64,000 nt of DNA, from the NCBI GenBank assembly GCA_024653945.1, contig JANLIT010000002.1:80255-144254 (forward strand). The letters are read 5' to 3'. The translations under genes were made by a program, and so were the position numbers. This document shows, piece by piece, positions 3,460 to 48,425 of this stretch (positions are counted from its first letter, which is position 1; each line of letters begins with the position of its first letter). The stretch comes from Candidatus Campbellbacteria bacterium (GTDB taxonomy: Bacteria > Patescibacteriota > Minisyncoccia > Phycocordibacterales > EsbW-18). The notes below the pieces were generated by a model that worked only from the letters and a program-made list of their open reading frames with translations, searched no databases and had not been told where the DNA came from.

Positions 3460-3530
3460 CGGGCCGTCGTATAGTGGCAGTACACAAGGCTGGGGGTCTT
3501 GTAGTGAGAGTTCGATTCTCTCCGGCCCGA
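3460..3530 (+). tRNA. tRNA-Pro (anticodon GGG)
   Basis: Acceptor CGGGCCG/CGGCCCG; D-arm GTAT-AGTGGCA-GTAC; anticodon stem CAAGG/TCTTG with loop CTGGGGG; T-arm GAGAG-TTCGATT-CTCTC; discriminator A followed by CC. Confidence 0.75.
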
Positions 3531-3538
3531 CCGTAGTT

Positions 3539-3958
3539 CTAAAGGACATTCTCAATGAAGAGTGTATGAGCTGTTTTGTCCTTTAGATTAAGTCGAATTG
3601 CCACAACATCTACCTGATACCGTGTTTCACGTGAAATATGTTTCTCAACTAGGTATGTCTGAATTGCCCTAGAAAGTCGCTCGAGCTTTTCACGCGTAAC
3701 GTGTTCCTCAGGTCTGATCATCGAGGTTAAACCTTGATAACCTGTTTCACGTGAAACGACACCGTTCCCTGTTTCGCATGAAACACATTTAACTTCAACA
3801 AATCTCAAAACTTTATTCTTTTGGGCAATAATATCTATCTCTCCCCATTTCTTTAGATAGTGTCTTTCTGTAATCTTAAAACCTCGTTTCACAAGAAACA
3901 GACACGCTAATTCTTCTCCTATTTTGCCTATTTTGATGTGTTTTGGGTCATTTTTCAT
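3539..3958 (-). CDS. YraN/UPF0102-family endonuclease-like protein carrying in-frame palindromic repeat insertions
   Basis: N-terminus GKIGEELACLFLVKRGFKI...WGEIDIIAQKNKVLRFVEVK and C-terminus RYQVDVVAI match UPF0102. The central part contains the repeated peptide VSRET, encoded by GTTTCACGTGAAAC palindromes. Confidence 0.6.
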   Translation of the reverse strand: MKNDPKHIKIGKIGEELACLFLVKRGFKITERHYLKKWGEIDIIAQKNKVLRFVEVKCVSCETGNGVVSRETGYQGLTSMIRPEEHVTREKLERLSRAIQTYLVEKHISRETRYQVDVVAIRLNLKDKTAHTLFIENVL

Positions 3959-4008
3959 GGAAAATAAGATTTCATGTGTAACAAATACCTATATGTTTCA
4001 CGTGAAAC
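3624..4008. repeat. Array of five copies of the 14-bp palindrome GTTTCACGTGAAAC (two exact, three 1-2 mismatch)
   Basis: Copies at 3624-3637 (GTTTCACGTGAAAT), 3744-3757 (exact), 3771-3784 (GTTTCGCATGAAAC), 3886-3899 (GTTTCACAAGAAAC) and 3995-4008 (exact, in the promoter region upstream of the YraN-like start). Confidence 0.7.
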
Positions 4009-4061
4009 ACTTATATCGGACATTATTAGAGACAAATTCTATAATATGGCTTAACTGGGCT

Positions 4062-4118
4062 ATTTTACACTGATATTTGCCTTTATTTTACACATGTCCA
4101 ATTGCCTGTCTTTTACAC
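4062..4118. repeat. Three iteron-like direct repeats (A)TTTTACAC spaced 23-25 bp apart
   Basis: ctATTTTACACtgatatttgcc, ttATTTTACACatgtccaattgcc and tcTTTTACACatatcc. They lie in the divergent region between the YraN-like gene and the tRNA cluster. Confidence 0.4.
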
Positions 4119-4285
4119 ATATCCCCGTTGTTGTCCACAGTTTTAGCCATTTTACCCTTTTAAAATAAAGTTTTCTTAAAGACATGGTTGTTTTGTCTTT
4201 ATAAAAATTTTATCTATTATCTTTTGGTCGAGAGTTGGTTAGAATTTGCTAAATTTTTTTATCTGATTTGCTCACAAAAAGATTA

Positions 4286-4732: not shown

Positions 4733-6196
4733 ATGAAAGACCTACCAAAAGAAGCGCGGGGGATTGTGGCCCTACTGCAACATAACGGGTACGAGGCGTA
4801 TCTTGTTGGTGGTTGCGTGCGCGACATGTACCTTGATTGCACACCAAAGGATTGGGATGTGACCACAAATGCAAATCCCGAACAAATTCAGGCGCTTTTT
4901 CCACATACTTTTTATGAAAATGAGTACGGAACCGTTGGTGTGGTGAACGATGAAACAGAAGATGCAACACTCAAAGCAATTGAAGTCACGCCATATCGAA
5001 AGGAGAGCGGGTACAGCGACAAACGACACCCAGATAGTGTTTCTTTTGGCACATCTCTTGAAGAAGACCTTGCGCGACGAGATTTTACCATCAACGCATT
5101 CGCGTTTGATACCACAACCAACACACTTGTTGATGTATATGATGGAAAAAAAGATTTGAAGGACAAACTCATCCGCGCGGTTGGTGATGCGGAGAAACGA
5201 TTCAATGAAGATGCACTCCGCATGTTGCGCGCTGTTCGTTTTGCAACGGAATTTGGTTTTGATATTGAAAAAAAGACGTCGGATGCAATTCTCAAACACG
5301 CAGATGACCTCGCACATATATCGGCCGAGCGTATTCGTGATGAATTCACTAAAATGCTTTTGTCAGACAGCCCATTTCGTGGAGTACGGCTTCTCCACGA
5401 ACACAAATTGCTCTCGTACATTGTTCCAGAATTAGAGAAGGGAATTGATGTGGGTCAAAATCAGGCCCATTCTTACACGGTTTTTGAGCACATTGGACGA
5501 ACACTGCAAGCTGCTGCTGATAAAAAATTCTCACTTGAACTTCGTCTTGCGACACTTTTTCATGACATCGCAAAACCACATACAAAAGCGATGGACACAA
5601 AGAAAAATGATTGGTCTTTCCATGGACATGAAGTTGTGGGCTCACGTCTTGCACGCAAACGAATGCAAGAGTTACGTTTTCCAACAGAGATTGTTGAAAA
5701 AGTGACGAAACTTGTTCGATGGCACATGTTTTTCTCCGATACAGAACAAATTACACACTCCGCTGTGCGTCGTCTCATTCGAAATGTTGGTCCAGAGAAT
5801 GTTGAAGATATTTTGAATGTGCGCATCTGTGATCGAATTGGAACAGGACGACCAAAAGAACAACCATATCGTTTGCGTAAATACAAAGCCATGATTGATG
5901 AGGTGCTGCGCGACCCGGTGTCTGTTGGAATGCTTAGTATTGATGGTAAACAGCTTATGGAGCTCCTTGGAGAGCGTCCCGGACCACGTATTGGATGGAT
6001 TCTCCATGCACTCCTTGAAGATGTACTTGATGACCCAACACAAAATACAAAAGAGTATTTGGAAACTCGCGCACAAACACTTGTAAAGCTTCCCGACGCA
6101 GAACTCCGCATACTTGGTGAAAAAGGGAGAGATGCACAGGAAGAAGCTGAGGAAAAAGAAGTTAAAAAAATCCGCTCCAAACATCACGTGGAGTGA
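4733..6196 (+). CDS. cca: CCA-adding tRNA nucleotidyltransferase / poly(A) polymerase family protein with HD domain
   Basis: GGCVRDMYL...DWDVTT nucleotidyltransferase head, RDFTINA motif, and an HD domain (LFHDIAKP...HGHEVVG). Confidence 0.85.
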   Translation: MKDLPKEARGIVALLQHNGYEAYLVGGCVRDMYLDCTPKDWDVTTNANPEQIQALFPHTFYENEYGTVGVVNDETEDATLKAIEVTPYRKESGYSDKRHPDSVSFGTSLEEDLARRDFTINAFAFDTTTNTLVDVYDGKKDLKDKLIRAVGDAEKRFNEDALRMLRAVRFATEFGFDIEKKTSDAILKHADDLAHISAERIRDEFTKMLLSDSPFRGVRLLHEHKLLSYIVPELEKGIDVGQNQAHSYTVFEHIGRTLQAAADKKFSLELRLATLFHDIAKPHTKAMDTKKNDWSFHGHEVVGSRLARKRMQELRFPTEIVEKVTKLVRWHMFFSDTEQITHSAVRRLIRNVGPENVEDILNVRICDRIGTGRPKEQPYRLRKYKAMIDEVLRDPVSVGMLSIDGKQLMELLGERPGPRIGWILHALLEDVLDDPTQNTKEYLETRAQTLVKLPDAELRILGEKGRDAQEEAEEKEVKKIRSKHHVE

Positions 6197-33980: not shown

Positions 33981-34970
33981 ATGCAACCTGATTCTTTTTT
34001 ACACAAACCAAGCAAACGTATTTTTGCCCTCGGAATAATTGCTATCGCGGTGATTGCTTCTGTTGTTCTTTTTAAAATAAAACCATCAACCACCCAACAG
34101 GGCGTGCTCAAAAATGAGGTGGTAAGCGGTACCATTGTTACCGAAATAGATTCTGATGCAGACGGACTCAAAGATTGGGAGGAGGCACTTTGGGGTACCG
34201 ACCCAAAAATGACGGACTCGAATGGAGATGGAATTGGTGACCTTGCAGAAGTGCGAAATAAAAAAATCGAAATACAGACGACACGAGAACAAATTCTTAA
34301 TTCTGCAACGAGCAGTATGTTTTCTTATTTTGAACAGGGTACAAACATCACCAAAACCGATGCTCTTTCTCGAGCACTCTTTGAACAAGTTATTGCATTT
34401 AAAACTGCGGGAATTCCTCTCACGAAAGAAGATGCAATACACATCGCTTCAACGCTCGGAAGTGTGATTGAACAGGCACCAGACACAAACCAGAAACAAT
34501 TTCAATTAAGCAACCTCAGTATTATTGAAACACCAACCACTGCACAGTTACATACCTATGGAAACACTGTTGCAGGAGCGCTTAAGGTTACTGTGTCCGA
34601 ACAAAATAACGAATTTTTTGTATTTGAAGAGTTTGCAAAAACAGGAAACGTTGCCTCTTTTGTAAAACTGAGCCCCGTTATTCAGCACTACAAAGATGTT
34701 GTTGCCAAGCTACGCGGTATTGCCACCCCACGAGACATTTCCGCAAGCTACCTTGATTTTATTAATACAACACAAATAACAGCAACTATACTTGGACAAC
34801 TTCAGACCGCCTCCGTCGACTCCGTGGCTATTATTCCCGTGTTACAAACATACCAAACAAACTACGACGCCCGAGTTGCCGCACTTCGTGCCATTAAAAC
34901 GTATCTTGTTGCGCAAAATATCACCTATACCGACTTTGAAGACGGGTTTTTACTTGTTACTATGGACTAG
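33981..34970 (+). CDS. Hypothetical N-terminally anchored protein, first gene of the T4SS-like cluster
   Basis: N-terminal TM helix IFALGIIAIAVIASVVLF. No recognisable domain. Confidence 0.4.
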   Translation: MQPDSFLHKPSKRIFALGIIAIAVIASVVLFKIKPSTTQQGVLKNEVVSGTIVTEIDSDADGLKDWEEALWGTDPKMTDSNGDGIGDLAEVRNKKIEIQTTREQILNSATSSMFSYFEQGTNITKTDALSRALFEQVIAFKTAGIPLTKEDAIHIASTLGSVIEQAPDTNQKQFQLSNLSIIETPTTAQLHTYGNTVAGALKVTVSEQNNEFFVFEEFAKTGNVASFVKLSPVIQHYKDVVAKLRGIATPRDISASYLDFINTTQITATILGQLQTASVDSVAIIPVLQTYQTNYDARVAALRAIKTYLVAQNITYTDFEDGFLLVTMD

Positions 34971-34978
34971 TTCTGTAC

Positions 34979-37900
34979 ATGTTCTCTCATTTTTATACAA
35001 AAATAGTCGTTACTCTCCTCGTTGTGCTTTTTGTCATAACACCCGTTGGTTTATCTCTTTCTACGGGCATGCAAGTACAACGTGTCCAAGCAGGATCACT
35101 GCCTCTTGGCGAGCTTGGTAAGGGCTTTGTTTCCACGGTTGCAGCGTGTGCTATAACTGCATTTATAATGAAATATGTATCTGGTGTTGTTGCAATTTTG
35201 CCATCTGCGACAGTGCCCGCAGGAACGGCGGAAACTCCTGTGAAAAAAATGCTTGACTGTATTCTCTATGGTGTTGTAAACGTAATTATTGAGGACATGA
35301 TAAAGAGCATCACGAGGTGGGCACAGAGTGGGTTTGAAGGAAACCCCGTGTTTGTTACTCAATTGGACTCCTACATGCGCGATGTTGTTGATAAACAGAT
35401 AGGGTTATATCTTGAAAGCAAAATTCCACTGCTTTGTTCTCCGTTTAAACTTGATGTCCAGCTCGCCCTCATGCAGTCATACCAAACAAGTTCCGGGAGA
35501 TATCAAGGGAGCTGTTCGCTCACAGAGGCGGTTGGGAACGTTGAGGGATTTCTTGGTGGAAACTTTTATGACGGTGGCTGGAATGGGTGGGTAGATTTGG
35601 TAAGCAACCCATACAGCAATCCCTACGGCTCATACCTTGAAGCGGACAGAGAGATGAAAATAAAAATCTTAGCAACTACAGATAAACAAACAAAAGATAT
35701 AGCCCAAGGGGCGGGGTACTTGTCTAAGCAGGTGCAACAGTGTTATGCGATGGTTGACGGGACAAGGGTTGATATGACAGCAGAGGATTATGAAAACGCC
35801 AATACTCCCGCTGGTGCAGATGATGTTGGTTGTGATGAACCACGGACAGTCACCCCTGGTTCATATATTCAAGAGCAGGTTGCAAAGACAACTGGACTTT
35901 CTATGGAGCGACTGTCTTTTGCAGATGAACTTAATGAAATGATAACGGCCATTGTTGCCTTCTTGGTACGCGATGTTCTTCTCGGAGAAAAAGGTCTTGC
36001 GGGATACGACCCGAACGATTTCCTCGACGACACATATCCAGACCTTCCAAGTCTTGATGAGATTGAAATACCTGGGGTTGATACGGGTGGTGATTTTCAA
36101 ATGTGTTTGCCAGAAAATTTGTGGGAAATATACCCACTTTCCGATGGAGTACCTGGTCAAGCGATAAGAATTCCATCAAGCCAATACCCTGCAACTGGCT
36201 TGCCATTTACCTCAACGCCTTCAAACCCAAGCTTAGAGATTCCTATCAACATGGGCGTAAAACAAAACTACTCACGTGTACAAATTTCGTTTACTGTAAC
36301 CGTTGGTGACCAATATCAATGTGTTCCGGTCGATCCACCCACACCCGAATGTCCGGTATCTCTTGGTGACCAATACAATGTTTTTTGGCTTCACAGAGAT
36401 ACGGGTTGGGGGCAAAACGATGTGGTTGAACTTGTTTCAAGACAACACGGAGGACAACTGGCCTTTAAGACAAGTGTTAATCTAGTCAATGGAAGTCCTT
36501 GTGCGGCAACACTAAACAATGGTTCTCGTTTTTCTTTTGTTGCTGGTCAGACATATCGCGTTGAAGTAGATTACAACCCGGGCCTAAGGGGTTTTGAGTC
36601 CGGCGCTTTTGGCCAAATGTCGTTAAAAATTAATGGCTCTGCTGTTGCAAGCCTAAACACCGGCACTAACGGCCAGGGTATTAATGTGTTGCAGAGTAAT
36701 CCTCCTTTTGGAAAACATAAGGGCAAGGGTGGTTTTAAAATAGTGCTCGGTGGTGCAGAAAATGCTGAGGGTAATGAGGGTGCCCCCTATGGTTGGACAT
36801 GGAGAGATCTGAATGTTGTATTTACACCCGGTCCGGCAACCACCGCGGATAGTGGTGATGATGATGGCAGCGGTTGTGTTCCTTGGGGAACAACAACGTG
36901 TGAAGGCCCTGTTCCAACAGCAACACTCACCGCAACAAGCCCAGTGAACTCTGGAACTCCCACAACTATTTCGTGGAGTTCAACGGACGCAACATCGTGT
37001 GACGTAACGCAGGGCTCAAATGCAGGATTTTCTACTGGTAGCGCACTATCAGGAAGCGATACCTCGTTTAATCTCACCGCAACTACAACGTTTGCAATTC
37101 GCTGTAGAGGAACGGGTGGGGCAGCAAACAAAAGTGCAACTGTTACTATCGGTGGTGCACCAACAGCAACCCTCACCGCTTCTCCAAACCCCGTAAACCC
37201 ACAAAGCCCAACAATACTGACGTGGAGTTCCACTGGTGCAACAGCGTGTTCAGTAACAGCGGGCTCAGATTCAGGATTTGAAATCGTCGGCAGTGCACCT
37301 TCGGGAAGTGATGACTCAGACGACCTTATAGCTTCGGCAACAACATTTGCAATTCTCTGTACAGGAACAGGCGGAACGGCCACCGCAAGTGTTGTTGTTA
37401 ATGCTGACGCAACACCGACGCCACTACGACTCTTTATTGACGATCGCGACACCCCCGGACAGATGGAACTCTATAAAGAAGCGAGTTCTGGAATCACGAA
37501 ACTCTCTGGACCACTTGTGGCCGACGGAAACGTACTCTTCTTTAAGGTCTCGCAGAATGGCCGGTACGTGGCGTACAGTGCCAGTGCTCGTAATTACCTA
37601 GACTATGAACTGTACACCGTGCCAATCACGGGTGGTGCTGTTACGCGCATTAGCCACACCTTGCCGTTTGACTATGATGTGAAGAATTTTGATTTCTCGC
37701 CAGACGGTCAGCGTGTCGTCTACCAAGCAGGCCGAACATCTATTGGGTTGTGGGAGCTGTTCTCCACACCAAGCGCGAGCGCTGGAGCACTGCGTATCAG
37801 CCAACAAATGGACGCTGGCGAGAATGTGCAGGTACAGCCAGGACAGGAAGAGTTTAAAATAAGTTGTGATAGTGAAACGGTCTACTTCCTCGCCGACACA

Positions 37901-38008
37901 ACGGCAACAGAAGTATATGAGGCATACTCGGTGCCCATCGGTGGTGGCACGATTACACTAATTCCAGGAGGTCAGTTGCCGGTGTTTCCATGTGTGGTTC
38001 CTTTTTAG
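34979..38008 (+). CDS. Large (1009 aa) membrane-anchored surface protein with two ~85-aa Ig-like repeats
   Basis: N-terminal TM. Repeats PTATLTATSPVNSGTPTTISWSSTDATSCDVTQGS...AIRCRGTGGAANKSATV and APTATLTASPNPVNPQSPTILTWSSTGATACSVTAGS...AILCTGTGGTATASVVV. Confidence 0.5.
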   Translation: MFSHFYTKIVVTLLVVLFVITPVGLSLSTGMQVQRVQAGSLPLGELGKGFVSTVAACAITAFIMKYVSGVVAILPSATVPAGTAETPVKKMLDCILYGVVNVIIEDMIKSITRWAQSGFEGNPVFVTQLDSYMRDVVDKQIGLYLESKIPLLCSPFKLDVQLALMQSYQTSSGRYQGSCSLTEAVGNVEGFLGGNFYDGGWNGWVDLVSNPYSNPYGSYLEADREMKIKILATTDKQTKDIAQGAGYLSKQVQQCYAMVDGTRVDMTAEDYENANTPAGADDVGCDEPRTVTPGSYIQEQVAKTTGLSMERLSFADELNEMITAIVAFLVRDVLLGEKGLAGYDPNDFLDDTYPDLPSLDEIEIPGVDTGGDFQMCLPENLWEIYPLSDGVPGQAIRIPSSQYPATGLPFTSTPSNPSLEIPINMGVKQNYSRVQISFTVTVGDQYQCVPVDPPTPECPVSLGDQYNVFWLHRDTGWGQNDVVELVSRQHGGQLAFKTSVNLVNGSPCAATLNNGSRFSFVAGQTYRVEVDYNPGLRGFESGAFGQMSLKINGSAVASLNTGTNGQGINVLQSNPPFGKHKGKGGFKIVLGGAENAEGNEGAPYGWTWRDLNVVFTPGPATTADSGDDDGSGCVPWGTTTCEGPVPTATLTATSPVNSGTPTTISWSSTDATSCDVTQGSNAGFSTGSALSGSDTSFNLTATTTFAIRCRGTGGAANKSATVTIGGAPTATLTASPNPVNPQSPTILTWSSTGATACSVTAGSDSGFEIVGSAPSGSDDSDDLIASATTFAILCTGTGGTATASVVVNADATPTPLRLFIDDRDTPGQMELYKEASSGITKLSGPLVADGNVLFFKVSQNGRYVAYSASARNYLDYELYTVPITGGAVTRISHTLPFDYDVKNFDFSPDGQRVVYQAGRTSIGLWELFSTPSASAGALRISQQMDAGENVQVQPGQEEFKISCDSETVYFLADTTATEVYEAYSVPIGGGTITLIPGGQLPVFPCVVPF

Positions 38009-38050
38009 GTGGAGTTTTAAGATTGGGGTGGTACGGTTGAGGTACATAAA

Positions 38051-40435
38051 ATGAAGCAAATCAAAAAGTGTGTAACTCTAAAAAATATGTTCACGTGGGG
38101 TAAAAAAAATCCAAGTCCAGAACTTTGCCAAGCGACATTATCTCGCGGGGCAAAAAGCGCGCAAAAAAAGTGCTGGATTAAGTTTGTGTTGCCACTTCTG
38201 TTTGTGGTTGCTGTTCTTACCACATTCTCCGTACCAACCCAGGCACACGCATACGAATGTGACCCGCCACGAGAAGGTTACGTGGACATGCACATGGGTT
38301 CTGGGTGTGTACTTCTTCCAGACAATCCTAACCTTGAGGGGACGGGCGCAGAGGACAAAGAAAGTGGTGGCTTTTGGGATATCATAACAAAGCCAAGAAT
38401 CCTTGTTGCGTGGATACTTTATATTGTTCTTGAAATACTTGGAATACTTCTTGCGGTAAGTGGTGCTCTTTTAGATTTCAGTATTCAGTTCTCCATAGTA
38501 AACATGAGTCAGTTTATTTCCGGAACAAACGGAATAAATGAGGGTTGGACAATTATCCGAGACCTCATGAATATTGTCTTTGTGTTTGCACTTCTCTTTG
38601 TGGGAATTAATACCATACTTGGTTCATGGTCTAGTTCATCTTTCAACACAAAACTCATTCCCAAAATTCTCTTGGCCGCCCTGTTTATCAACTTCAGCAT
38701 GATGATTACCAAGGTTGTTATAGACACATCAAACATTCTCACTCTTGAACTTTATGTTGCTACGAAAAAAATCTCTGAACCCGTAGCAGGTGTTACACCT
38801 CCTGAGGGTATTAACATGAATACTACGGGACTTGCGGGGGGGATAATGAACAGCCTGCACATGACCTCTTTTCTAAATGGAAAACTCACAAAAGAGGGGA
38901 GGGCTGTCGCAATACCCGACTCGGCAGATAGAAGTTTGTTGACCAATGTGACCATGGGAATCATTGTTGTGCTCGTTGCCATGTTTATTTTTCTCATCAT
39001 GGCATTTATGTTCTTGGCGCGAATGGTTATTTTTATTATTTTGATAGTTACCTCACCAATAGCATTTATGGGGGGGCTTATTCCTCAGCTCAAATCTCAA
39101 GCGGATAAGTGGTGGGAAGCGTTGTGGGGTCAAGCATTTTTTGCTCCAATCTTTTTTGCAATGCTCTTAGTGGTATTCAAAATACTTAATGACCCCCATT
39201 TTCAAGATTTTGCAGCCCGTCCCCTTGATCCTAATGGTACTGGTATTGAGGGTCTTGATTTATCAAACTTTGTTGCTGGCAGCGCTGAAGTTATTGTTAA
39301 ATATATCATCGTCATCTACCTCCTTGTTACTGCACTCATTGTTGCTAAAAAAGTTTCAAGTGATGCAGGAAAGGGTGCTGCTGGTTTGGGTTCAAAACTG
39401 GCGGGTGGCGCAATATTTGGAGGCGGAGCACTTCTCGCCCGACAAACACTTGGACGCGCCGGAGAAGGGTTGGCAAAATCTGGGAGGGTTGGAAGGTTGG
39501 CAGAGTCAACAAACCCATTCATAAAACGTGTTGGCCAATCACTCTCTGCGGCAGGAAACTGGACACAAAAGGCAAGTTTTGATACACGGGGTCTCAAAGC
39601 TGCCGCTAGCCTTGATGCTGGAAAAGCTGCTGGTGAAGGTGGTCTGATTGGTAGACGCGAAGCACGAAGTAAGGGGAAGGAGGAGCGTCTTACTATGTAC
39701 GCAAAGAACAGAGCAATAGCAGGACAAGAGGTGGCAGTACGAGAAGCCGAGGCAGATGTTTCGAAGAAAACGAAAGAGGGCGCAAGTGACGATGACATAA
39801 AGAAGGCAAATGACAATCTTGCTATACAGAAAAGCGCGCTTGTTGAAATGAGGGGTGGCCCATCAAAAGAGCGCAGAGAACTTGCTGAAGCAAGTGCAAA
39901 GCTTACTCTTGCAGAAGAAACAGAGCTTAACACTACAATGAAAATAATTGCACTGCGAAAAGAATATATTGAAGACCTTGAAAACCGAAGAGACATTGCA
40001 AAAGAGGGTTCAGATGAGAAGAGGAAGCTTGAAGAGGAAGTAACAGACGCCAAGAAAAACCTTGAGGAATACAAGAACGGTATAAAAGGTGCGGATGGCA
40101 CGGTGACTGGGGCTAAATCAAAAAACATATTGGATGTGATTGGACTAATGGAGACACGGGGCAAAATTGAAAAAGCCCAAAAAACCACCACCGCAACGGC
40201 CCTACGAAAATTGGGTGAGGAGTATGCTACTTCAGTAGTTGTAGCAACACATGATGCGGGAGTAAGAGTAATACGAAAAGGACTAGAGGACTCAGAAAAA
40301 GGTAGTCTCGCCAAAGAAATCGCAAAGTTGAAGGCGGAAAAAAAGGACGCGAAAGAACCTGAAGTGAAGACACCGGCACCGGCGGCGCCGGGGGGACCAG
40401 TGCCACAGCTAGGAAACCCACACAGCCCAGAATAG
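38051..40435 (+). CDS. VirB6/TrbL-like polytopic membrane protein with a long charged coiled-coil C-terminus (794 aa)
   Basis: 6-7 predicted TM helices in the first 450 aa. The K/E-rich C-terminal half. Its position beside the VirB4 and PrgI-like genes supports the call. Confidence 0.4.
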   Translation: MKQIKKCVTLKNMFTWGKKNPSPELCQATLSRGAKSAQKKCWIKFVLPLLFVVAVLTTFSVPTQAHAYECDPPREGYVDMHMGSGCVLLPDNPNLEGTGAEDKESGGFWDIITKPRILVAWILYIVLEILGILLAVSGALLDFSIQFSIVNMSQFISGTNGINEGWTIIRDLMNIVFVFALLFVGINTILGSWSSSSFNTKLIPKILLAALFINFSMMITKVVIDTSNILTLELYVATKKISEPVAGVTPPEGINMNTTGLAGGIMNSLHMTSFLNGKLTKEGRAVAIPDSADRSLLTNVTMGIIVVLVAMFIFLIMAFMFLARMVIFIILIVTSPIAFMGGLIPQLKSQADKWWEALWGQAFFAPIFFAMLLVVFKILNDPHFQDFAARPLDPNGTGIEGLDLSNFVAGSAEVIVKYIIVIYLLVTALIVAKKVSSDAGKGAAGLGSKLAGGAIFGGGALLARQTLGRAGEGLAKSGRVGRLAESTNPFIKRVGQSLSAAGNWTQKASFDTRGLKAAASLDAGKAAGEGGLIGRREARSKGKEERLTMYAKNRAIAGQEVAVREAEADVSKKTKEGASDDDIKKANDNLAIQKSALVEMRGGPSKERRELAEASAKLTLAEETELNTTMKIIALRKEYIEDLENRRDIAKEGSDEKRKLEEEVTDAKKNLEEYKNGIKGADGTVTGAKSKNILDVIGLMETRGKIEKAQKTTTATALRKLGEEYATSVVVATHDAGVRVIRKGLEDSEKGSLAKEIAKLKAEKKDAKEPEVKTPAPAAPGGPVPQLGNPHSPE

Positions 40436-40445
40436 AGGGAGATCT

Positions 40446-41108
40446 GTGGTGGTTAATATAGTACATTGTATGAACGAAGAATCTCAAAAAATCATCAAAG
40501 AAAAATTTGCCCAGCTTCCTCCTGCTTTACAAAAAGCATTTACGGAGATTGATCTTTTGGGTCGTGTGCGAAATATCATAACCAAAAATAATCTGCGAGT
40601 GGACGACGGGGGGTTGTTTGAGGATGAGGTTATGTTTATATTACTTGGTTTAGAGCATCCAAATAACTTTATTGCGAACCTTACCACCCGACTGCATGTT
40701 CCCCTTATCACTATTGAAAAACTTGTTATTGATGTAGAGAAGGAAGTTTTTCTTCCTGTGAGAGAGTCCTTGATGAAGATGTTTCCAACTGGGGAACACG
40801 GAGCAACCCCCGAAAAACTACCTGTCGCACCAGCAACGTCTCAACAACACTCCCCAACCGTTATCTACCCGCAAAAACCCGCCGTACAAGCACCAGTATC
40901 ACAAGCGGTACCTCCTGCAAATCTTCCAATCACACCACAACCACAGACAGCCCCTGGACTAACCCGCACACTTCCAAAAGATATTGTACAAACAAAACTT
41001 GAACAAAGTTTCCGCATGCCTCCAACAACGACAACCATTAAAGAAAGTACGCCACCAACACCTGTGACACAAAAGGTGGTAGATCCGTACCGCGAACCAA
41101 CTGAGTGA
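40446..41108 (+). CDS. Hypothetical protein with a Pro/Thr/Gln-rich C-terminus (alternative start at 40470)
   Basis: The ORF track starts at GTG 40446. The first ATG (MNEESQK) is at 40470. Confidence 0.4.
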   Translation: MVVNIVHCMNEESQKIIKEKFAQLPPALQKAFTEIDLLGRVRNIITKNNLRVDDGGLFEDEVMFILLGLEHPNNFIANLTTRLHVPLITIEKLVIDVEKEVFLPVRESLMKMFPTGEHGATPEKLPVAPATSQQHSPTVIYPQKPAVQAPVSQAVPPANLPITPQPQTAPGLTRTLPKDIVQTKLEQSFRMPPTTTTIKESTPPTPVTQKVVDPYREPTE

Positions 41109-41196
41109 CATGTAGCATGTAGCACGAAGCATGTAACATGTAGCTTGAAACAAGAAGTTTTAGAAAAAATTTAGGACAGGGAGTTATTGTATACTG

Positions 41197-41559
41197 GTGA
41201 ACAAAAACTCACCGGAAACATTTCATCAAAAACTTCAAACATTGATGTACTCTTTTGTGCACAGTGTCTATGATGCAACTAAAACATTCCCCGGAGACGA
41301 GATTTTTGGTGTAACAAGTCAACTGCGTCGAGCAACACTATCTGTTGCCCTAAATTATACAGAGGGATACGCTCGTCATGGTAAAAGGGAGCTTGCTCAT
41401 TTTCTTAAGATTTCTTATGGCTCACTCAAAGAATCCATGTATCTTGTGCAGTTTGCTAAAGACAGAGAGTGGATATCTCTAGAAACACATCAAAAACTGT
41501 ACCAAATGGGGGATGAGATTGGTAAAATGTTGTGGTCAAGTTTTTCACATATGACATAA
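41197..41559 (+). CDS. Four-helix-bundle protein (23S rRNA intervening-sequence protein family)
   Basis: FHQKLQTLMYSFVHSVYDATKTFPGDEIFGVTSQLRRATLSVALNYTEGYAR...LKISYGSLKESMYLVQFAKD matches the TIGR02436-type family. Confidence 0.6.
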   Translation: MNKNSPETFHQKLQTLMYSFVHSVYDATKTFPGDEIFGVTSQLRRATLSVALNYTEGYARHGKRELAHFLKISYGSLKESMYLVQFAKDREWISLETHQKLYQMGDEIGKMLWSSFSHMT

Positions 41560-41605
41560 GATATATAACGTGTATCATGTAGCATATAATGCACAACAAA
41601 AATAT

Positions 41606-41633
41606 GTTACATGTTTCGTGTTACATGTTTCGT
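41606..41633 (+). repeat. Tandem 14-bp direct repeat GTTACATGTTTCGT x2, immediately upstream of the PrgI-like gene
   Basis: 41606-41619 and 41620-41633 are identical. Related CATGTAGC/CATGTAAC motifs cluster at 41109-41150 and 41576-41590, flanking the four-helix-bundle gene. Confidence 0.55.
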
Positions 41634-41641
41634 GTCCTACC

Positions 41642-42064
41642 ATGAAATTTGAAGTCCCTCAATTCATTGACATAGAAGACAAGGTGTTCGGACCACTCAC
41701 CTTTAAACAGTTCATCTATCTTGCGGGTAGTGCTGGTCTTTCGGTGGTTATTTGGGTTTTTCTACCACTTCTTCTTGCCATTCCACTTATTGGTGTTGTT
41801 GTCGGACTTGGTGTTGCGCTTGCATTCTATAAAGTGAACAACGAACCATTTATTGCTCTCATTGAGTCAGCGCTTCGATACTCTCTCGGGCATAAACTGT
41901 ATATTTGGAAAAAAATGCCGAAAAAAGTTACCAAAGAAAAAGAAGATGGCACACAGGAGTCCGGTATGCTTGTTCCCCGCATCGCAGATAGTAAGTTGCG
42001 CGACCTTGCGTGGAGTTTGGATGTACACGATTCACTCAATGGGGGCGGGGAATCACCACTGTAA
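41642..42064 (+). CDS. PrgI-like (VirB3-analog) small membrane protein
   Basis: MKFEVPQFIDIEDKVFGPLTFKQFIYLAGSAGLSVVIWVFLPLLLAIPLIGVVVGL shows the Gram-positive-type PrgI pattern: N-terminal amphipathic segment, GPLT, two TM helices. Confidence 0.4.
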   Translation: MKFEVPQFIDIEDKVFGPLTFKQFIYLAGSAGLSVVIWVFLPLLLAIPLIGVVVGLGVALAFYKVNNEPFIALIESALRYSLGHKLYIWKKMPKKVTKEKEDGTQESGMLVPRIADSKLRDLAWSLDVHDSLNGGGESPL

Positions 42065-42105
42065 GTGTTGGTGAGACGCACTTTCTCGGCTACAATATAT
42101 ACATT

Positions 42106-42777
42106 ATGGCCCAACCAAAAGCCGAATCGACACAGGCATTCGTGCCCATCAAAGAAATTCGTAGTGGTGTTGTTGTACTCAAAGATGGGTCTCTTCGTGC
42201 TGTCCTTCTTGCATCATCTCTCAACTTTGCTCTCAAATCTGAAGATGAGCAATCTGCCATCATCATGCAATTTCAAAACATGTTGAACTCTATTGAGTTT
42301 CCCATTCAGATACTCGTGCAATCCCGCAGACTTGATATTCGCCCATACATTGCCTTGCTAGAAAACCAACTAAAGGAACAAACAATTGACCTCATTAAGG
42401 TGCAAACACGTGAGTACATTGAATTTGTGAAAGGATTCACCGAGAATGTGAGCATCATGACAAAATATTTTTATATTGTGGTGCCCTACACTGGCGCAAT
42501 TGTGAGTGCCTCAAAGGGCGGTGTTCTCGGTGGACTCAAGGGGCTCTTTGGAAAAAAGAATCGTACCAATTCCGAACAAAAACTTACCGCTTTTGAAGAG
42601 AGTCGCAGTCAGCTCGAACAACGCGTTACCGCTGTAACACAAAACCTTGCGCGTACGGGCATTCGCTCAACACAACTAAGAACTGAAGAGCTTGTTGAGT
42701 TGTACTACAAAATGTTTAATCCTGGCGACTCAGAAAAACCTATTGTTCTGCAAGGACTTCAGGGGGTTCAAAAATAA
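42106..42777 (+). CDS. virB4: VirB4/TraC-family ATPase, N-terminal domain, encoded as a separate ORF (split gene or pseudogene)
   Basis: AFVPIKEIRSGVVVLKDGSLRAVLLASSLNFALKSEDEQSAIIMQFQNMLNSIEFPIQILVQSRRLDI is the canonical VirB4 N-terminus. TAA at 42775-42777 lies 3 nt before the ATG of the ATPase ORF. Confidence 0.55.
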   Translation: MAQPKAESTQAFVPIKEIRSGVVVLKDGSLRAVLLASSLNFALKSEDEQSAIIMQFQNMLNSIEFPIQILVQSRRLDIRPYIALLENQLKEQTIDLIKVQTREYIEFVKGFTENVSIMTKYFYIVVPYTGAIVSASKGGVLGGLKGLFGKKNRTNSEQKLTAFEESRSQLEQRVTAVTQNLARTGIRSTQLRTEELVELYYKMFNPGDSEKPIVLQGLQGVQK

Positions 42778-42780
42778 TAT

Positions 42781-44709
42781 ATGGGAATTCTTGATTTTAT
42801 AAAAGGAAAACCAAAAAAGGCGGCACAAATTACCCCCGTGCTTCCAAAGGATATTTACGAGGCTGGTGTGCTTGAACTCCAAGACGTTATTGCACCATCT
42901 GCTCTCAAAATAACACCCCGCGCACTCAACCTTGGGGACAAGGTGGTGCGAACGTTCTTTGCTATTTCATACCCACGCTTTCTTCCAGACAATTGGCTTT
43001 CACCAGTTATCAACATGGACAAGGTGTTTGATCTCTCTATCTCTATTATTCCTGTTGATACCGCACAAGTGCTCAAAGAATTCAGAAAGCGTGTTGCAGA
43101 AGTACAAAGCCAAATTCACATGCGCGAAGATAAGGGAATGGTGCGTGACCCAATGCTTGATAGTGCCTATGAAAATCTTGAATCACTTCGTGACCAACTA
43201 CAACAAGCAACTGAGAAACTATTTGATGTTGGACTGTATATCTCCATCTATTCAGAAAATGAGAGTGACCTTGATAAAACAGAATCAGAAATTCGCTCAC
43301 TTCTTGAATCACGTCTTATTTATCTCAAACCCGCGCTCTTCCAACAAGAGCAGGGATTCAAGAGCGTGCTTCCTGTGGGAACCGACGAACTTGGTATCCA
43401 CAGCAAACTCAACACAGCACCTCTCTCAAGCTTTTTTCCATTTGTGTCATTTGATCTTTCATCAAATCAGGGAATTCTCTATGGTGTGAACCGCCACAAC
43501 TCTGGACTCATTCTGTTTGACCGATTCTCTATGCCAAACTACAACTCAGTTATGTTTGCAACATCAGGGGCAGGAAAAAGTTACGCAACGAAGTTGGAAA
43601 TTCTTCGTACGCTCATGTTTGACACCGAAGTTATTGTAATTGACCCAGAGCGTGAGTATGAATTTATGGTTGATGCTATGGGTGGACGCTATTTTGATAT
43701 TTCACTTACATCTCAACACCACATCAATCCCTTTGACCTACCTCCAGTGCGCGAAGATGAAACCCCAGCAAACGTATTGCGTTCAAACATTATTACACTT
43801 GTGGGACTCTTCCGTATTATGTTTGGTGGGCTCACGCCAGAAGAGGATGCCATTATTGACCGAGCTATTACTGAAGTGTATGCACTCAAAGATATTACTG
43901 GAGAACACGATTTTGCGGGTGTTGAGCCACCCCTTTTGTCTGATTTTGAACTCGTGCTTGCGGGTATGAACGGTGGAGAATCGCTCGTACAACGACTTTC
44001 AAAGTACACCAAAGGAACGTGGTCTGGCTTCATCAACCAACCAACTAACGTGGATATCAATAAAAAATTTATTGTGTTCTCTGTACGTGACATGGAAGAG
44101 GAGCTCAAGCCGGTTGCTATGTATTTGATTACACACTATATCTGGAGTGCAGTACGCCGTACACTCAAAAAGCGCCTCCTTGTGGTGGACGAGGCATGGC
44201 TCATGATGAAGGATGAAAATACCGCATCGTTGTTGTTTGGGTTGGCAAAACGTGGACGAAAGTACTTCCTCGGCATTGCCACCATCACGCAGGATGTTGG
44301 GGACTTCCTACGTTCCCCATACGGACTTCCAATTATCACCAACTCTTCAATTCAGTTGCTCTTAAAACAGTCTCCGTCGTCTATTGATCTCGTGCAACAA
44401 ACATTTAACCTCACCGACGAGGAAAAGTTCTTGCTTCTTGAATCTGAGCGCGGGGAGGGCATTTTCTTTGCTGGACTCAAGCACGTGGCAATAAAAAGTA
44501 TTGCATCGTATACCGAAGACCAAATTATTACCTCGGACCCGTCACAACTTCTTGCACTCAAAAAATCACGAGAAGAATTACAGGCAACAAAAGAGAGTGA
44601 CGTGGTAAAAACAAGTGATGTTGAACCTCTTGCAGAAAAAGTATCACAATCTGAACAACACAAAAACGAGCTTCTCACCCAGGCTGTGGATATGAAAAAC
44701 GTAGAATAA
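42781..44709 (+). CDS. virB4: VirB4/TraC/CagE-family type IV secretion ATPase (C-terminal two thirds)
   Basis: Walker A ATSGAGKS, Walker B LLVVDEAW, and conserved FDxxGxxY and ATQ motifs. Confidence 0.8.
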   Translation: MGILDFIKGKPKKAAQITPVLPKDIYEAGVLELQDVIAPSALKITPRALNLGDKVVRTFFAISYPRFLPDNWLSPVINMDKVFDLSISIIPVDTAQVLKEFRKRVAEVQSQIHMREDKGMVRDPMLDSAYENLESLRDQLQQATEKLFDVGLYISIYSENESDLDKTESEIRSLLESRLIYLKPALFQQEQGFKSVLPVGTDELGIHSKLNTAPLSSFFPFVSFDLSSNQGILYGVNRHNSGLILFDRFSMPNYNSVMFATSGAGKSYATKLEILRTLMFDTEVIVIDPEREYEFMVDAMGGRYFDISLTSQHHINPFDLPPVREDETPANVLRSNIITLVGLFRIMFGGLTPEEDAIIDRAITEVYALKDITGEHDFAGVEPPLLSDFELVLAGMNGGESLVQRLSKYTKGTWSGFINQPTNVDINKKFIVFSVRDMEEELKPVAMYLITHYIWSAVRRTLKKRLLVVDEAWLMMKDENTASLLFGLAKRGRKYFLGIATITQDVGDFLRSPYGLPIITNSSIQLLLKQSPSSIDLVQQTFNLTDEEKFLLLESERGEGIFFAGLKHVAIKSIASYTEDQIITSDPSQLLALKKSREELQATKESDVVKTSDVEPLAEKVSQSEQHKNELLTQAVDMKNVE

Positions 44710-44716
44710 CCCGGCT

Positions 44717-45520
44717 ATGTCAGAAAATGATTCTCAAGAAAATAAAAAACCGAAACGAATTGATTCTACAACACGCTACTTGTTGATTGGAACCGCAATT
44801 ATTTTTGATCTTATCAGCATTATCCCTGTTGTTGGACAGTTCTTGGCCATTGGAGGGGCGGGTATCACTTTTTATATTTGGTTCAAGACACTCGGCGTAT
44901 CATTCATAAGCCCAAAACGAATTGTAACCACCGCCGTTGAGTATATTGGCGAAGCAATTCCTGTTGTAAGTGCTCTTCCCCTTATAACAACTGGAACAAT
45001 TATTATGATTGTGTTAACTGACATTGAGGACAAAACGGGAATCGGTTTGGCAAGTTTGGCAGCTGGAAAAATGTCAAAAGGGAAAGTGTCCACAACAGCA
45101 CAACGAACAGAAAGAAAGGCTGCACGTAGAGCGGCCGATCCCGAACGAGCAACTCGGGCACGAGAACGCCTAGCCAAAATGAAAGAAAAAAAGGTTGGTA
45201 TAGCGACAAAAACGAATCCTCAGGGAATGATGAGGGATTTAAAGCCAACCGAAAAGTACAATTATGGAGATGGTGGGGCAAAGGTGACATTTAAAAACCC
45301 TTGGCAGAAATTAAAGTTTAGAGTAGGAAAACCACAAATAAAGGCGACTGGTGGAGAGGAGTGGGAGCAAAACCCTGCAAGTGAACGCCTACGACTCATT
45401 CGAGGTGGTGGCCAGGGAATAAGTGCACCTAGTCAGCCACTATCAAAGTACAACGAGCCTCTCACCGACCATTCTCCTCCAACTGGTCCTGTGGAAAACA
45501 AAGAAAAAGGAACCGCTTAA
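44717..45520 (+). CDS. Hypothetical membrane protein (267 aa) in the T4SS-like cluster
   Basis: Three hydrophobic helices in the N-terminal 110 aa. Charged C-terminus. Confidence 0.4.
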   Translation: MSENDSQENKKPKRIDSTTRYLLIGTAIIFDLISIIPVVGQFLAIGGAGITFYIWFKTLGVSFISPKRIVTTAVEYIGEAIPVVSALPLITTGTIIMIVLTDIEDKTGIGLASLAAGKMSKGKVSTTAQRTERKAARRAADPERATRARERLAKMKEKKVGIATKTNPQGMMRDLKPTEKYNYGDGGAKVTFKNPWQKLKFRVGKPQIKATGGEEWEQNPASERLRLIRGGGQGISAPSQPLSKYNEPLTDHSPPTGPVENKEKGTA

Positions 45521-45547
45521 AATATAAAAGAGTGCTAGTATAAAGGT

Positions 45548-46261
45548 ATGACAACGCTTCAAAAAACAGCCATCCTTGTCTTTCTTTTTCTTTTTGGTGC
45601 TGTTGCCAACGCCCAAATAAACGTTACTACAGAAATTATCCGACCAACAGTTGAAATGATATGGGAAGCGCATTCTTATATTCCACCTTTTTATAAAGGA
45701 AAAGCACTCTATCCGATTGGTGGGGAAGTAACCGTCTTAGCGCTTCCTCCTGCTTCGTTGGGAAATCCAAACGCTCTCACCTACACATGGAAACGAGATG
45801 GGCAAGTGCAGGGGTCTCTTTCTGGTGTTGGAAAAAGTTCTTTTAGTTTCTCTGGTTCACAATTTGGAGACATACCACTCGTTGTTGTTGAGGTTTCTAG
45901 CGGAAACGCGAGAGCTGTTGGGGCGCTTCAAATTCAACAAATAAATCCAGTCATTAGGTTCTATGAAAATAAACCACTGGAAGGTGTTGCTCTTGAACAC
46001 GCACTTCCTCAAACTCTCACAACGACAAAAAAGGACATAGCACTTGAGGTATACCCGTATTTTTTCTCAGCAAATACTAACAACGACAGCTCGCTTGCAT
46101 ACTCGTGGTCAGCAAATGGAAAAAAAATTCTTGATGCAAAAGGTCCAAGTATTGTTGTACAAAGTGATGAACCTCGTTCCATCATCATGTTACTTTCCAT
46201 GAATCATGTTGCTCAAATTCTTCAACGAGCAAGTACTAGTATTCTCGTTACCTTTGAATAG
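45548..46261 (+). CDS. Secreted hypothetical protein (237 aa)
   Basis: Signal peptide LQKTAILVFLFLFGAVANA. SD AAAGG. Confidence 0.4.
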   Translation: MTTLQKTAILVFLFLFGAVANAQINVTTEIIRPTVEMIWEAHSYIPPFYKGKALYPIGGEVTVLALPPASLGNPNALTYTWKRDGQVQGSLSGVGKSSFSFSGSQFGDIPLVVVEVSSGNARAVGALQIQQINPVIRFYENKPLEGVALEHALPQTLTTTKKDIALEVYPYFFSANTNNDSSLAYSWSANGKKILDAKGPSIVVQSDEPRSIIMLLSMNHVAQILQRASTSILVTFE

Positions 46262-46262
46262 T

Positions 46263-47168
46263 ATGCGTATACTCACTAGAAAAAATGTTGTCTTTGTTTT
46301 AACTCTTGTCGTTTTCCTTGTACCCATCTTTTTTATTCATGCCGCAACAGAACCATACACACTTCTTGTCAATGATATTCCGGGTCTTGGAGAGACGGTA
46401 ACACCTGGTGCGGGAGGTGGGGTGGGTGCATATCTCAATACCATTTTTAGAATAGGTCTGGGTATTGCCGTAACACTTGCCATTCTTATGTTTGTCTACA
46501 ACGGAGTCATCTACATGACATCCGACATTGTTGGAAACAAAGAGGGTGCAAAAAAAGCATTCTTGAGTATTTTAGGAGGGCTCGTGCTTGTATTTAGCTC
46601 TGTGCTTATTCTTGAGGTCATCAATCCCCAACTTGTTAACTTTGGAATCTTTGAAACACTAGGAGCAATTGAACCCGCACCAGGTGGCGGGGGTGGGGGC
46701 GGAACGCCTCCTCCCCCTGGAGGGGATGGAACAACCGACCCCGCCATGGAAACCAGTGCTCGTGCATATTTAGATGCTAACCATATCACCGTAAATCAAG
46801 CCGCCTGTACTCCTGGACAAGGGGCTCCAAGTTGTATAAACGTTGGTGACATGTCGACACCTGTTGCACATCAACTTGTCGCTTTGGCTGAAGCCTGTGG
46901 ATGCAACATAAACATCACAGGTGGAACAGAGCGGGGTCACACAACACACGGACCAGACAAACCTATGTATGATTTTAGTAAAAAAATAATAAACGGCCAG
47001 ACACCGCCTATTACCACCTACCTTGAGGGCCTGCAAAAAGTGAAGGTGGTCGGTGGCGGACAAGTATATACTGATGGAACGAGTGAGTTCTGGGATGAGC
47101 CCGCAAATCCGGGTAGCAATTGGGGTTCACACTGGCATGCGTGTATTGGAACAACGTGTCGTTTTTAA
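46263..47168 (+). CDS. Pilin-like (TrbC/VirB2-like double-TM) N-terminus fused to a Cys/His-rich C-terminal domain
   Basis: Signal anchor plus a second hydrophobic segment (FRIGLGIAVTLAILMFVYNG...SILGGLVLVFSSVLILEVI). G/P-rich linker. C-terminus with CTPGQGAPSC, ACGC, HTTHG, HWHAC resembles a zinc-hydrolase fold. Confidence 0.35.
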   Translation: MRILTRKNVVFVLTLVVFLVPIFFIHAATEPYTLLVNDIPGLGETVTPGAGGGVGAYLNTIFRIGLGIAVTLAILMFVYNGVIYMTSDIVGNKEGAKKAFLSILGGLVLVFSSVLILEVINPQLVNFGIFETLGAIEPAPGGGGGGGTPPPPGGDGTTDPAMETSARAYLDANHITVNQAACTPGQGAPSCINVGDMSTPVAHQLVALAEACGCNINITGGTERGHTTHGPDKPMYDFSKKIINGQTPPITTYLEGLQKVKVVGGGQVYTDGTSEFWDEPANPGSNWGSHWHACIGTTCRF

Positions 47169-47180
47169 TAAATATAGTGT

Positions 47181-48425
47181 ATGAAAAAAATTGTTATTTT
47201 TATAATCGTATTTGTTGTCGCTCTTTTTTTGGCAGGGAGTGTGTGGTGGTTTTTTACGAAAAATGATTTAGCAACGACGGGAGACGGTACACAACAGGGA
47301 ACTCAAACATTTAACCCGTTTGGACTTTTTGGAGACATCACACCAATACGTCCCAGCGCAACGAGCACAGACGGACAAACACCCGACACTGGTGTACAAC
47401 AAAAAAAGTTTCTTACCGCTATTTCTGAAAAAGTAGTTGCTGGTTCCACATTTGCCATCATTACACATGGCACCTCTACCGATATGTTGGTGCGTTATGT
47501 TGAACGAGAAACAGGACACATTTTTGACTACTCACTTTCAACGGGGCTTACGACTCGTATTTCAAACACTACCGTTCCTCGCGTTCGTGAGGCATTGTGG
47601 GGAAACAACGCTTCAACCGTTGCGTTACGCTATCTTACTGAGGACGGTTCTATAGAAACATTTTTAGGAACCATTGCAACATCAAGCGCAAATTTGGACA
47701 ACGGATCACTTCTATCTGGATCATTCCTGCCAAAAGACATTGTATCTCTTTCTATTCACCCAACACTTCCAAAAACTTTTTATCTTACAAAAACAAATGC
47801 TGGTGGTGTTGGGTATGTTTTGAGTGAAAAAATTACAAAAAGTGTGTTTTTACACCCTTTTTCACAATGGCAAACCTCGTGGAGTGGAGCATCGTCCGTT
47901 CTTTTAACAACGGCACCGTCCTCTCAATCTAACGGAAACGCTTTCTTGCTTAACACAACAACGAAGACCTTTGACCGCATCGCCAGCAGCACGACCGCAT
48001 TAACAGCACACCCTTCTCCAGACGGATTGCGTGTTCTTTTTGGATCCGTAGGACAAGCCGGTATGCGACTCTTTATATATGATGTTATGAAAAAACAAAG
48101 AACCGCACTTTCTTTCAGCACGCTTCCAGAAAAATGTGCGTGGGTAGGGGCGGGAACCCTGTATTGCGCCATTCCTGATATTCAAATTCAAACAGGGCTT
48201 CCTGATGTGTGGTATCAAGGTGTTGTGTCGTTTTCTGACGAGCTTTGGAAAATTGATACACAAACAGGAAATGCAACATTCATTTTCGACCCACACGACA
48301 CAATTTCCGGTGGTGCCGACATGATTGATATAGGGGTGAGTGCTGGTGGAGGGTTTCTTTCATTCACAAATAAAAAAGACGGCCGGCTGTGGCTCGTTGA
48401 TTTTTCCGCCCAACCCGTAGAATAA
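47181..48425 (+). CDS. Hypothetical N-terminally anchored protein (414 aa), possibly beta-propeller-like
   Basis: N-terminal TM helix. Ser/Thr-rich. Last gene of the cluster before the bidirectional terminator. Confidence 0.4.
   Translation: MKKIVIFIIVFVVALFLAGSVWWFFTKNDLATTGDGTQQGTQTFNPFGLFGDITPIRPSATSTDGQTPDTGVQQKKFLTAISEKVVAGSTFAIITHGTSTDMLVRYVERETGHIFDYSLSTGLTTRISNTTVPRVREALWGNNASTVALRYLTEDGSIETFLGTIATSSANLDNGSLLSGSFLPKDIVSLSIHPTLPKTFYLTKTNAGGVGYVLSEKITKSVFLHPFSQWQTSWSGASSVLLTTAPSSQSNGNAFLLNTTTKTFDRIASSTTALTAHPSPDGLRVLFGSVGQAGMRLFIYDVMKKQRTALSFSTLPEKCAWVGAGTLYCAIPDIQIQTGLPDVWYQGVVSFSDELWKIDTQTGNATFIFDPHDTISGGADMIDIGVSAGGGFLSFTNKKDGRLWLVDFSAQPVE

Follow-up and report, generated by a model that had tools for sequence, protein, structure and literature searches.

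A cluster of palindromes in and upstream of yraN in a Candidatus Campbellbacteria genome is probably a chromosomal parS centromere

The stretch of Candidatus Campbellbacteria DNA analysed here, 64 kb in length and called the window below, carries a short gene, yraN, with a 14-bp palindrome, GTTTCACGTGAAAC, repeated inside its coding sequence and just upstream of it. The divergent neighbour of yraN is cca (Table 1). A first-pass annotation, made from the letters alone, had reported five copies of this palindrome between 3624 and 4008, two exact and three with one or two mismatches. Both the coordinates and the mismatch counts were confirmed: the copies start at 3624, 3744, 3771, 3886 and 3995, with 1, 0, 2, 2 and 0 mismatches, respectively. 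Four of them are within the yraN open reading frame (ORF), as claimed, and the fifth, placed at about 40 bp upstream, is intergenic and ends 36 bp before the ATG. The cluster spans 385 bp, mostly within one 139-codon gene. We consider it very probable that these palindromes form a chromosomal parS cluster, a group of centromere-like sites onto which the CTPase clamp ParB (Spo0J) is loaded.

The density of copies had been described as far above expectation, and this holds. Against the five copies observed, dinucleotide-preserving shuffles of the 64-kb window (n=100, up to 2 mismatches) have a mean of 0.71 copies and a maximum of 3, with 0/100 shuffles reaching five. The other 63.6 kb of the window contain no further copy at 2 or fewer mismatches. 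In terms of dyad symmetry, a perfect left half-site followed by the matching right half is found only inside the cluster in the yraN loci compared below.

Read as a 16-mer, the perfect copy at 3994-4009 equals the consensus chromosomal parS at 16/16 bases. This consensus is TGTTTCAC-GTGAAACA, with a 14-bp core that is exactly GTTTCACGTGAAAC, and the core used in the ParB-parS crystal structure is the same 14-mer (10.1101/724823). The conserved chromosomal parS, TGTTNCACGTGAAACA, is present in several copies, mostly within the origin domain (PMC7022226).

Table 1. Features of the window discussed in the text. Mismatches are counted against the 16-mer TGTTTCACGTGAAACA.
Feature	Position	Strand	Details
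Perfect parS TGTTTCACGTGAAACA	3994..4009	.	Intergenic; 0 mismatches; 36 bp upstream of yraN ATG
Site B	3743..3758	.	1 mismatch/16, perfect 14-bp core; VSRET = YraN residues 68-72, disordered linker
Site C	3623..3638	.	1 mismatch; ISRET = YraN residues 108-112, loop
Site A	3770..3785	.	2 mismatches; VSCET = residues 59-63, directly after catalytic E-V-K motif
Site D, degenerate parS-like	3885..3900	.	3 mismatches; F-H-V-K frame, FLVKR = residues 21-25
Weak sixth parS-like copy TGTTACACATGAAATC	3968..3983	.	4 mismatches; yraN 5' leader
yraN, UPF0102, predicted PD-(D/E)xK-type nuclease, 139 aa	3539..3958	-	PF02021, E=6e-18
Tandem DnaA-box-like 9-mers TTTTACACA, TTTTACACA, TTGTCCACA	4086..4139	+	cca/yraN spacer; boxes at 4086, 4111, 4131
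cca, CCA-adding tRNA nucleotidyltransferase	4733..6196	+	PolyA_pol and related domains
HNH-like ORF, 134 aa	2997-3401	-	Cys-rich, H-H...N...H motifs; no Pfam match at E<=0.001
yidC	48484-49218	-	Pfam domain; upstream of dnaA
rnpA, rpmH	just upstream of dnaA	-	Sequence
dnaA	49975-51339	+	Pfam DnaA domain
AT-rich dnaA-dnaN spacer, likely oriC	51340-51574	+	DnaA boxes at 51341 and 51528
dnaN	51575-52675	+	Pfam DnaN domain

The cluster is conserved well beyond this genome. We compared the window with the yraN loci of 80 other Patescibacteria species (L001-L080), 81 loci in all, and found parS-like sites (up to 2 mismatches to the 16-mer) in 72/81 yraN regions. Across the 80 species the density is 2.24/kb in yraN ±150 bp against 0.061/kb in the ±10-kb flanks, a 37-fold difference. 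The rarity of the motif elsewhere, on which its standing in the first-pass annotation depended, is seen both in the rest of the window and in the flanks of the relatives.

Sites are densest between -250 and +250 around the yraN start (0.6-0.8 per locus per 250 bp); upstream they thin out as far as about -2.5 kb, and downstream there are none beyond +1 kb (~70 loci). The maximum is at the divergent cca/yraN spacer, and the 250 bp upstream of yraN contain 50 sites with 0-2 mismatches across the 81 loci. When the upstream spacers of five species are aligned, the 14-bp core stands out, over 14 consecutive columns, as the sole invariant block. De novo k-mer enrichment gives the same picture, as the five most widespread 10-mers near the yraN start are all fragments of parS, each well in excess of expectation. 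One such fragment, CACGTGAAAC, is present in 44 loci, with 98 counts against 1.7 expected.

The in-gene copies are found at orthologous positions across species, down to ~45% protein identity, with site C kept mainly in the closest relatives (L001-L004, offsets 287-311). The weak sixth copy, TGTTACACATGAAATC, is positioned between the perfect site and the yraN start codon and is common to the window and L001; at the equivalent place L004 has a much better second site. Furthermore, cca is the conserved divergent partner of yraN in 71/81 loci, and the cca genes of the relatives (about -600 to -2500 from the yraN start) contain 37 parS-like sites in the VS.ET frame (frame 2), with peptides such as NVSDET, DVSRET and NVSHET. 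No such site, at up to 3 mismatches, is present in the cca of the window.

The third frame of parS contains TGA, so a parS within an ORF is readable only as V-S-R-E-T or F-H-V-K-H/Q. With only these two readable frames, the in-gene copies force VS(R/C)ET-type peptides into YraN loops. The first-pass annotation had all in-gene copies encoding VSRET. Three are indeed in the V-S-x-E-T frame (VSCET, VSRET and ISRET), but the copy at 3886 reads FLVKR.

We resampled codons in 73 orthologs, with amino acids fixed and codons drawn from background usage. The distance of the real sequences to parS gave z=-14 at site A, -13 at site B, -7 at site C and -14 at site D. The number of orthologs with no more than 2 mismatches to parS is 27 at site A (0.7 expected) and 13 at site D (0.2 expected), where the peptides include KFLVKH and RFLVKH. 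The Val codon of site A is GTT in 66/73 genes, compared with a background of 34%, and a control invariant Val is GTA in 41 and GTT in 25. For Arg at site A the codons are CGT (25), CGA (2) and CGG (2), never AGA, though this is the commonest Arg codon. The middle residue of site A is R, C, H or W, spelled CGT, TGT/TGC, CAT or TGG. These residues are chemically unrelated, yet their main codons are single-base neighbours of CGT. Lastly, the DNA that encodes VSRET in the orthologs has no more than 1 mismatch to the 14-mer in 11/11 occurrences; orthologs with the peptide and without the motif, named as a counter-case in the first-pass annotation, were not found among them. All four in-gene sites thus match parS better than is needed to encode their peptides. 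It is the DNA sequence that selection maintains, with VSRET as a by-product.

The host protein has a clear family assignment, with 65.4 bits against PF02021 (gathering cut-off 23.6). The closest protein is a 100% identical “YraN family protein [Candidatus Campbellbacteria bacterium]”. The residues E15, D42, E55 and K57, which make up the E...D...E-x-K core, are invariant in 25 YraN homologs. The AlphaFold model has a predicted local distance difference test (pLDDT) score of 80.8 and is confident except at residues 1-3 and 63-80, the latter below 50. Of the in-gene peptides, VSRET at 68-72 is the only one that falls fully in this disordered linker (63-80), as had been claimed for all of them. 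The others are at the end of a strand (50-60), in a loop (106-112) and at the end of a helix (5-24).

The PF02021 match has 80 profile positions stretched over 108 YraN residues. Homologs across Patescibacteria contain VS(R/C/W)ET, V(S/T)(H/R)ET and (I/V)S.ET at the same three alignment positions. Sites A and B are in adjacent 27-bp (9-codon) units at 3732-3785, which encode VSCETGNGV and VSRETGYQG and share GTTTCA...GAAACAGG, 17/27 bases. This likeness suggests that the extra linker of the Patescibacteria protein arose when a parS-bearing 27-bp unit was duplicated. Judged from these sequences, the YraN linker was probably lengthened by an old tandem duplication of the parS-bearing unit.

In terms of genomic setting, yidC-rnpA-rpmH/dnaA-dnaN at 48.5-52.7 kb is the classic origin arrangement, which puts the palindrome cluster ~46 kb from the probable oriC. 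If the genome is ~0.6-0.8 Mb like those of relatives (a size taken from their contigs of 617-811 kb), this distance places the cluster within the “ori domain” as defined in PMC7022226. In L007, L009 and L035, dnaA is 8-9 kb from yraN and on the opposite side of yraN compared with the window, so the larger distance in the window may reflect an insertion or rearrangement. The 22 dnaA neighbourhoods of close relatives contain no parS-like sites.

The gene content of the window fits a small Patescibacteria genome, with genes resembling those of type IV secretion systems (T4SS), PilB, PBP1 and many proteins without a Pfam match. Between the parS cluster and dnaA, the region 33981-48425 is a plus-strand block with T4SS-type signatures. 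It includes a PrgI-like gene (41570-2064), a TraG/VirB4-like P-loop ATPase (42781-44709), a T4SS pilin-like gene (46206-47168) and several large ORFs without a Pfam match, for example 34979-38008 and 38051-40435.

Taken together, the cluster has the features of chromosomal parS: a 16-bp match to TGTTNCACGTGAAACA, several copies in one origin-proximal cluster, rarity outside it and purifying selection at the DNA level. A mechanism can be proposed from established ParABS biology. ParB dimers would recognise the 16-bp palindrome through their helix-turn-helix domains, nucleating most likely at the perfect site (3994-4009) and at the near-perfect ones at 3743 and 3623. They would then close into CTP-bound clamps and slide onto the neighbouring DNA. 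Such spreading would build a single partition complex ~46 kb from the dnaA-dnaN origin, marking the origin region for segregation and probably also for SMC loading. Since the perfect site is in the leader/promoter region of yraN, ParB may also, speculatively, damp the expression of yraN.

Several points weigh against a parS cluster. The binding of ParB at these sites is predicted from their sequence match, and the copies with 2 and 3 mismatches may bind ParB weakly or not at all; binding at site D is uncertain. Rarity outside the cluster was assessed in the 64-kb window and the flanks of relatives. No ParB or ParA genes were found in the window, including a permissive Pfam scan of its unannotated ORFs, nor in the 80 yraN loci or the 22 dnaA neighbourhoods of close relatives. 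Since chromosomal par operons tend to lie near the origin (PMC7022226), finding none near the dnaA of relatives is mildly unexpected. That this particular genome encodes ParB is predicted from the prevalence of the protein across the Candidate Phyla Radiation (CPR).

The search for ParB and ParA covered ~1.5 Mb and 3,948 ORFs, using tblastn, phmmer and a hidden Markov model (HMM) built from authentic ParBs. The queries, B. subtilis Spo0J and Soj and a Thermus ParB, were validated against the authentic-ParB HMM (E=1e-104, 7e-79). A database search with an idealised consensus ParB matched only Clostridia-type proteins and was uninformative on Patescibacteria. With ~1.5 Mb sampled from genomes of 0.6-1 Mb, chance alone would yield only one or two hits, and the absence of ParB is therefore weak negative evidence. 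In the sampled DNA, neither parS nor dnaA has par genes next to it.

The sole ParB hit was discarded as a phage-type fusion of a ParB-N domain and a methyltransferase, encoded beside SSB and HNH genes. It is on L104 (13500-20366), a phage-like contig from a groundwater metagenome, which encodes this 415-aa ParB-N-domain::DNA-methyltransferase fusion, an SSB, an HNH protein and a repeat-rich protein (GIEAGSGIKAG...). The contig was drawn in by a weak match to the C-terminal part of DnaA and is unrelated to the parS cluster.

As for the CPR as a whole, the canonical ParB family (PF02195, K03497, median 290 aa) has a count of 1717 in the CPR column and is labelled “equally_distributed” (Méheust et al. 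2019, Supplementary Data 1). The same column gives 1985 for GyrB, 1983 for EF-Ts, 2002 for GatB and 1645 for PheRS-alpha (Méheust et al. 2019, Supplementary Data 1). With 1717 against 1645-2002 for universal genes, ParB is near-universal in the CPR, which makes a protein that reads the sites plausible.

A second feature of the cca/yraN spacer has to be weighed at this point. In the window, an array of DnaA-box-like 9-mers at 4062-4148 is followed by AT-rich DNA to about 4330. Boxes with the core TT[AG]TCCACA, all in the same orientation, are present 130-480 bp upstream of yraN in most of the loci; the array of L013, for example, reads TTATACACA-tATCCACA-aag-TTATCCACAgttt. The 500 bp that precede yraN have a mean of 1.58 boxes, compared with 0.21 per 400 bp in the background. 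Box density in the spacer is ~6x background and below that of the relatives' dnaA-dnaN spacers, which have a mean of 2.45 boxes per 400 bp and up to 9. The array may be a secondary DnaA-box cluster adjoining the centromere.

A broader reading of the same spacer is that in Paceibacteria-type Patescibacteria it forms a composite chromosome-maintenance module, with parS cluster, DnaA-box array and AT-rich DNA, physically uncoupled from dnaA and the par genes. We regard this as doubtful. In its strongest form, the cca/yraN spacer and not the dnaA-dnaN spacer may be the functional replication origin, or a second origin. DnaA boxes are enriched in the spacer, and locus-averaged GC skew changes from negative on its upstream side to positive on its downstream side, as an origin would require. 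The skew is asymmetric, however, and the relatives' dnaA-dnaN spacers hold more boxes; the spacer was therefore set aside as the real oriC. In another form, it may be a point of mutual regulation between ParB/ParA and DnaA. It may also be that genomes of the clade without ParB keep the sites for another reader.

The first-pass annotation had offered operator sites for a dimeric regulator as one explanation. Part of this survives, since the sites are probably for a dimeric DNA-binding protein. A local operator fits poorly, with 4/5 copies intragenic and no regulator gene nearby. More generally, the palindromes could be operators by which some other dimeric regulator controls the divergent cca and yraN promoters, the parS match being coincidental or convergent. 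In many species the best-conserved copy precedes the yraN start by 25-120 bp, which would suit a repressor, and no ParB gene was found in the sampled DNA. Most copies are nevertheless intragenic, reaching as far as 320 bp into yraN and 2.5 kb into cca, unlike operators. The conserved neighbours include no regulator gene. The identity to the ParB site also extends over all 16 bp, and canonical ParB is present almost throughout the CPR. We find this explanation unlikely.

It is less likely still that the palindromes are recognition or cleavage sites of the HNH protein or of YraN itself, for example in a homing or self-regulating system. The two genes are adjacent in the window, HNH relatives recur in the neighbourhood of five other loci, and YraN has an intact PD-(D/E)xK-type core. 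The HNH gene is however missing from 75/81 yraN regions, and its position varies where it is present. The proposal of the first-pass annotation that the motif is its target fails on this comparison, as HNH is found in 6/81 yraN regions (the window and 5 loci) and parS-like sites in 72/81. YraN is linked to the motif by location alone; across bacteria this sequence serves as the ParB site independently of yraN, so a YraN target is not required. A nuclease target would also not be expected to stay intact for so long under purifying selection on the DNA.

The HNH ORF itself is flanked by tRNA-Pro(tgg) at 2891-2962 and tRNA-Pro(ggg) at 3460-3532. Its relatives were seen in L003, L043, L044, L051 and L069 only, at varying positions. 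Being few and variably placed, they suggest a sporadically mobile free-standing gene in a tRNA-rich region.

The reverse of selection on DNA would be that the VSRET-type peptide is a functional YraN motif under selection, with the palindrome as a by-product of coding. Peptides of the VS.ET type do recur at the same alignment positions in many homologs, and GTT, GAA and ACA are the commonest V, E and T codons in these genomes. With the peptides fixed, however, the observed DNA is still far nearer parS than codon usage predicts (z from -7 to -14). The middle residue is not chemically conserved, while its codon nearly is. The same motif is conserved in the upstream non-coding DNA and within the unrelated gene cca, and site B is in a disordered loop. 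The codon tallies, the resampling and the invariant upstream block have already largely refuted a selected peptide, which we now hold to be highly improbable.

The last explanation, that the copies are small mobile palindromic elements in coding sequence, akin to repetitive extragenic palindromic (REP) or miniature inverted-repeat transposable (MITE) elements, or that they form RNA hairpins in the transcript, can be given practically no credence. The sequence is palindromic, multicopy and encodes a linker that looks like an insertion relative to the Pfam model, but the flanks agree at 7-16/40 positions, which is chance level, so that nothing is shared beyond the 16-mer. The copies are at orthologous positions across species, and none is dispersed in the 64 kb. 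This disposes of the coding-region-invading element suggested in the first-pass annotation. The RNA hairpins are weak (-4.2 to -6.3 kcal/mol), one being no different from shuffles, and no terminator-like sites were found; the hairpin or terminator reading was rejected for these reasons.

A parS cluster thus explains the motif by a textbook system, and the motif does not merit pursuit as a novel regulatory or mobile element. We found no work linking parS to Patescibacteria or to yraN in the literature searched, where queries on ParB in Parcubacteria and on VSRET were empty or irrelevant. We also know of no experimental chromosome biology for Campbellbacteria or Paceibacteria. The kind of motif is ordinary, and the case is moderately interesting for its fixed cca/yraN address in a large uncultured lineage, the peptides written into YraN and the conserved DnaA-box neighbour.

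The cluster is a ready marker for the origin-proximal centromere in genomes of Campbellbacteria and Paceibacteria. It is also a clean natural case of a DNA-binding site that overrides codon choice and fixes amino acids in a protein loop, and a caution for reading “conserved peptide motifs” of CPR proteins as functional. Furthermore, the conserved combination of parS and DnaA-box array at a distance from dnaA offers a testable lead on how replication and segregation are organised in reduced genomes.

Among known systems, the DnaA-box clusters outside oriC (the DBCs of B. subtilis, and datA and the DnaA-reactivating sequences, DARS, of E. coli) resemble the neighbouring array, which is likewise intergenic and away from dnaA. 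To our knowledge, DBCs, datA and DARS have not been described as lying directly next to a parS cluster.

The Noc-binding site (NBS) of Firmicutes is closer to the palindromes themselves. Both are 16-bp palindromes for a helix-turn-helix protein of the ParB family, with the same outer arms TTTC...GAAA. In place of a single cluster, NBS sites are spread across the chromosome outside the terminus. The NBS consensus is TATTTCCCGGGAAATA, with a CC-GG centre and A at position 2 (10.1101/724823). The window sites have G at position 2, an AC-GT centre and C at position 15. These are 4 differences from the NBS consensus, each of them the parS base, and the identity as NBS was rejected, since the window reads TGTTTCAC-GTGAAACA.

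The closest system is chromosomal parS itself, as known from the 10 Spo0J sites of B. subtilis (TGTTNCACGTGAAACA) and the clusters of Pseudomonas, Caulobacter, Corynebacterium and Streptomyces. The 16-bp palindrome of the window is the same to the base. As in these systems, there are several graded copies in one origin-proximal cluster, rare elsewhere and tolerated in genes. Three differences can be listed. In the sampled DNA, par genes were not found within 10 kb of the sites or of dnaA. The cluster is tied to the cca/yraN pair across a whole class of Patescibacteria, and not to the par operon or dnaA. Finally, the window sites are packed in 385 bp, mostly in one 139-codon gene, where they specify loop peptides.

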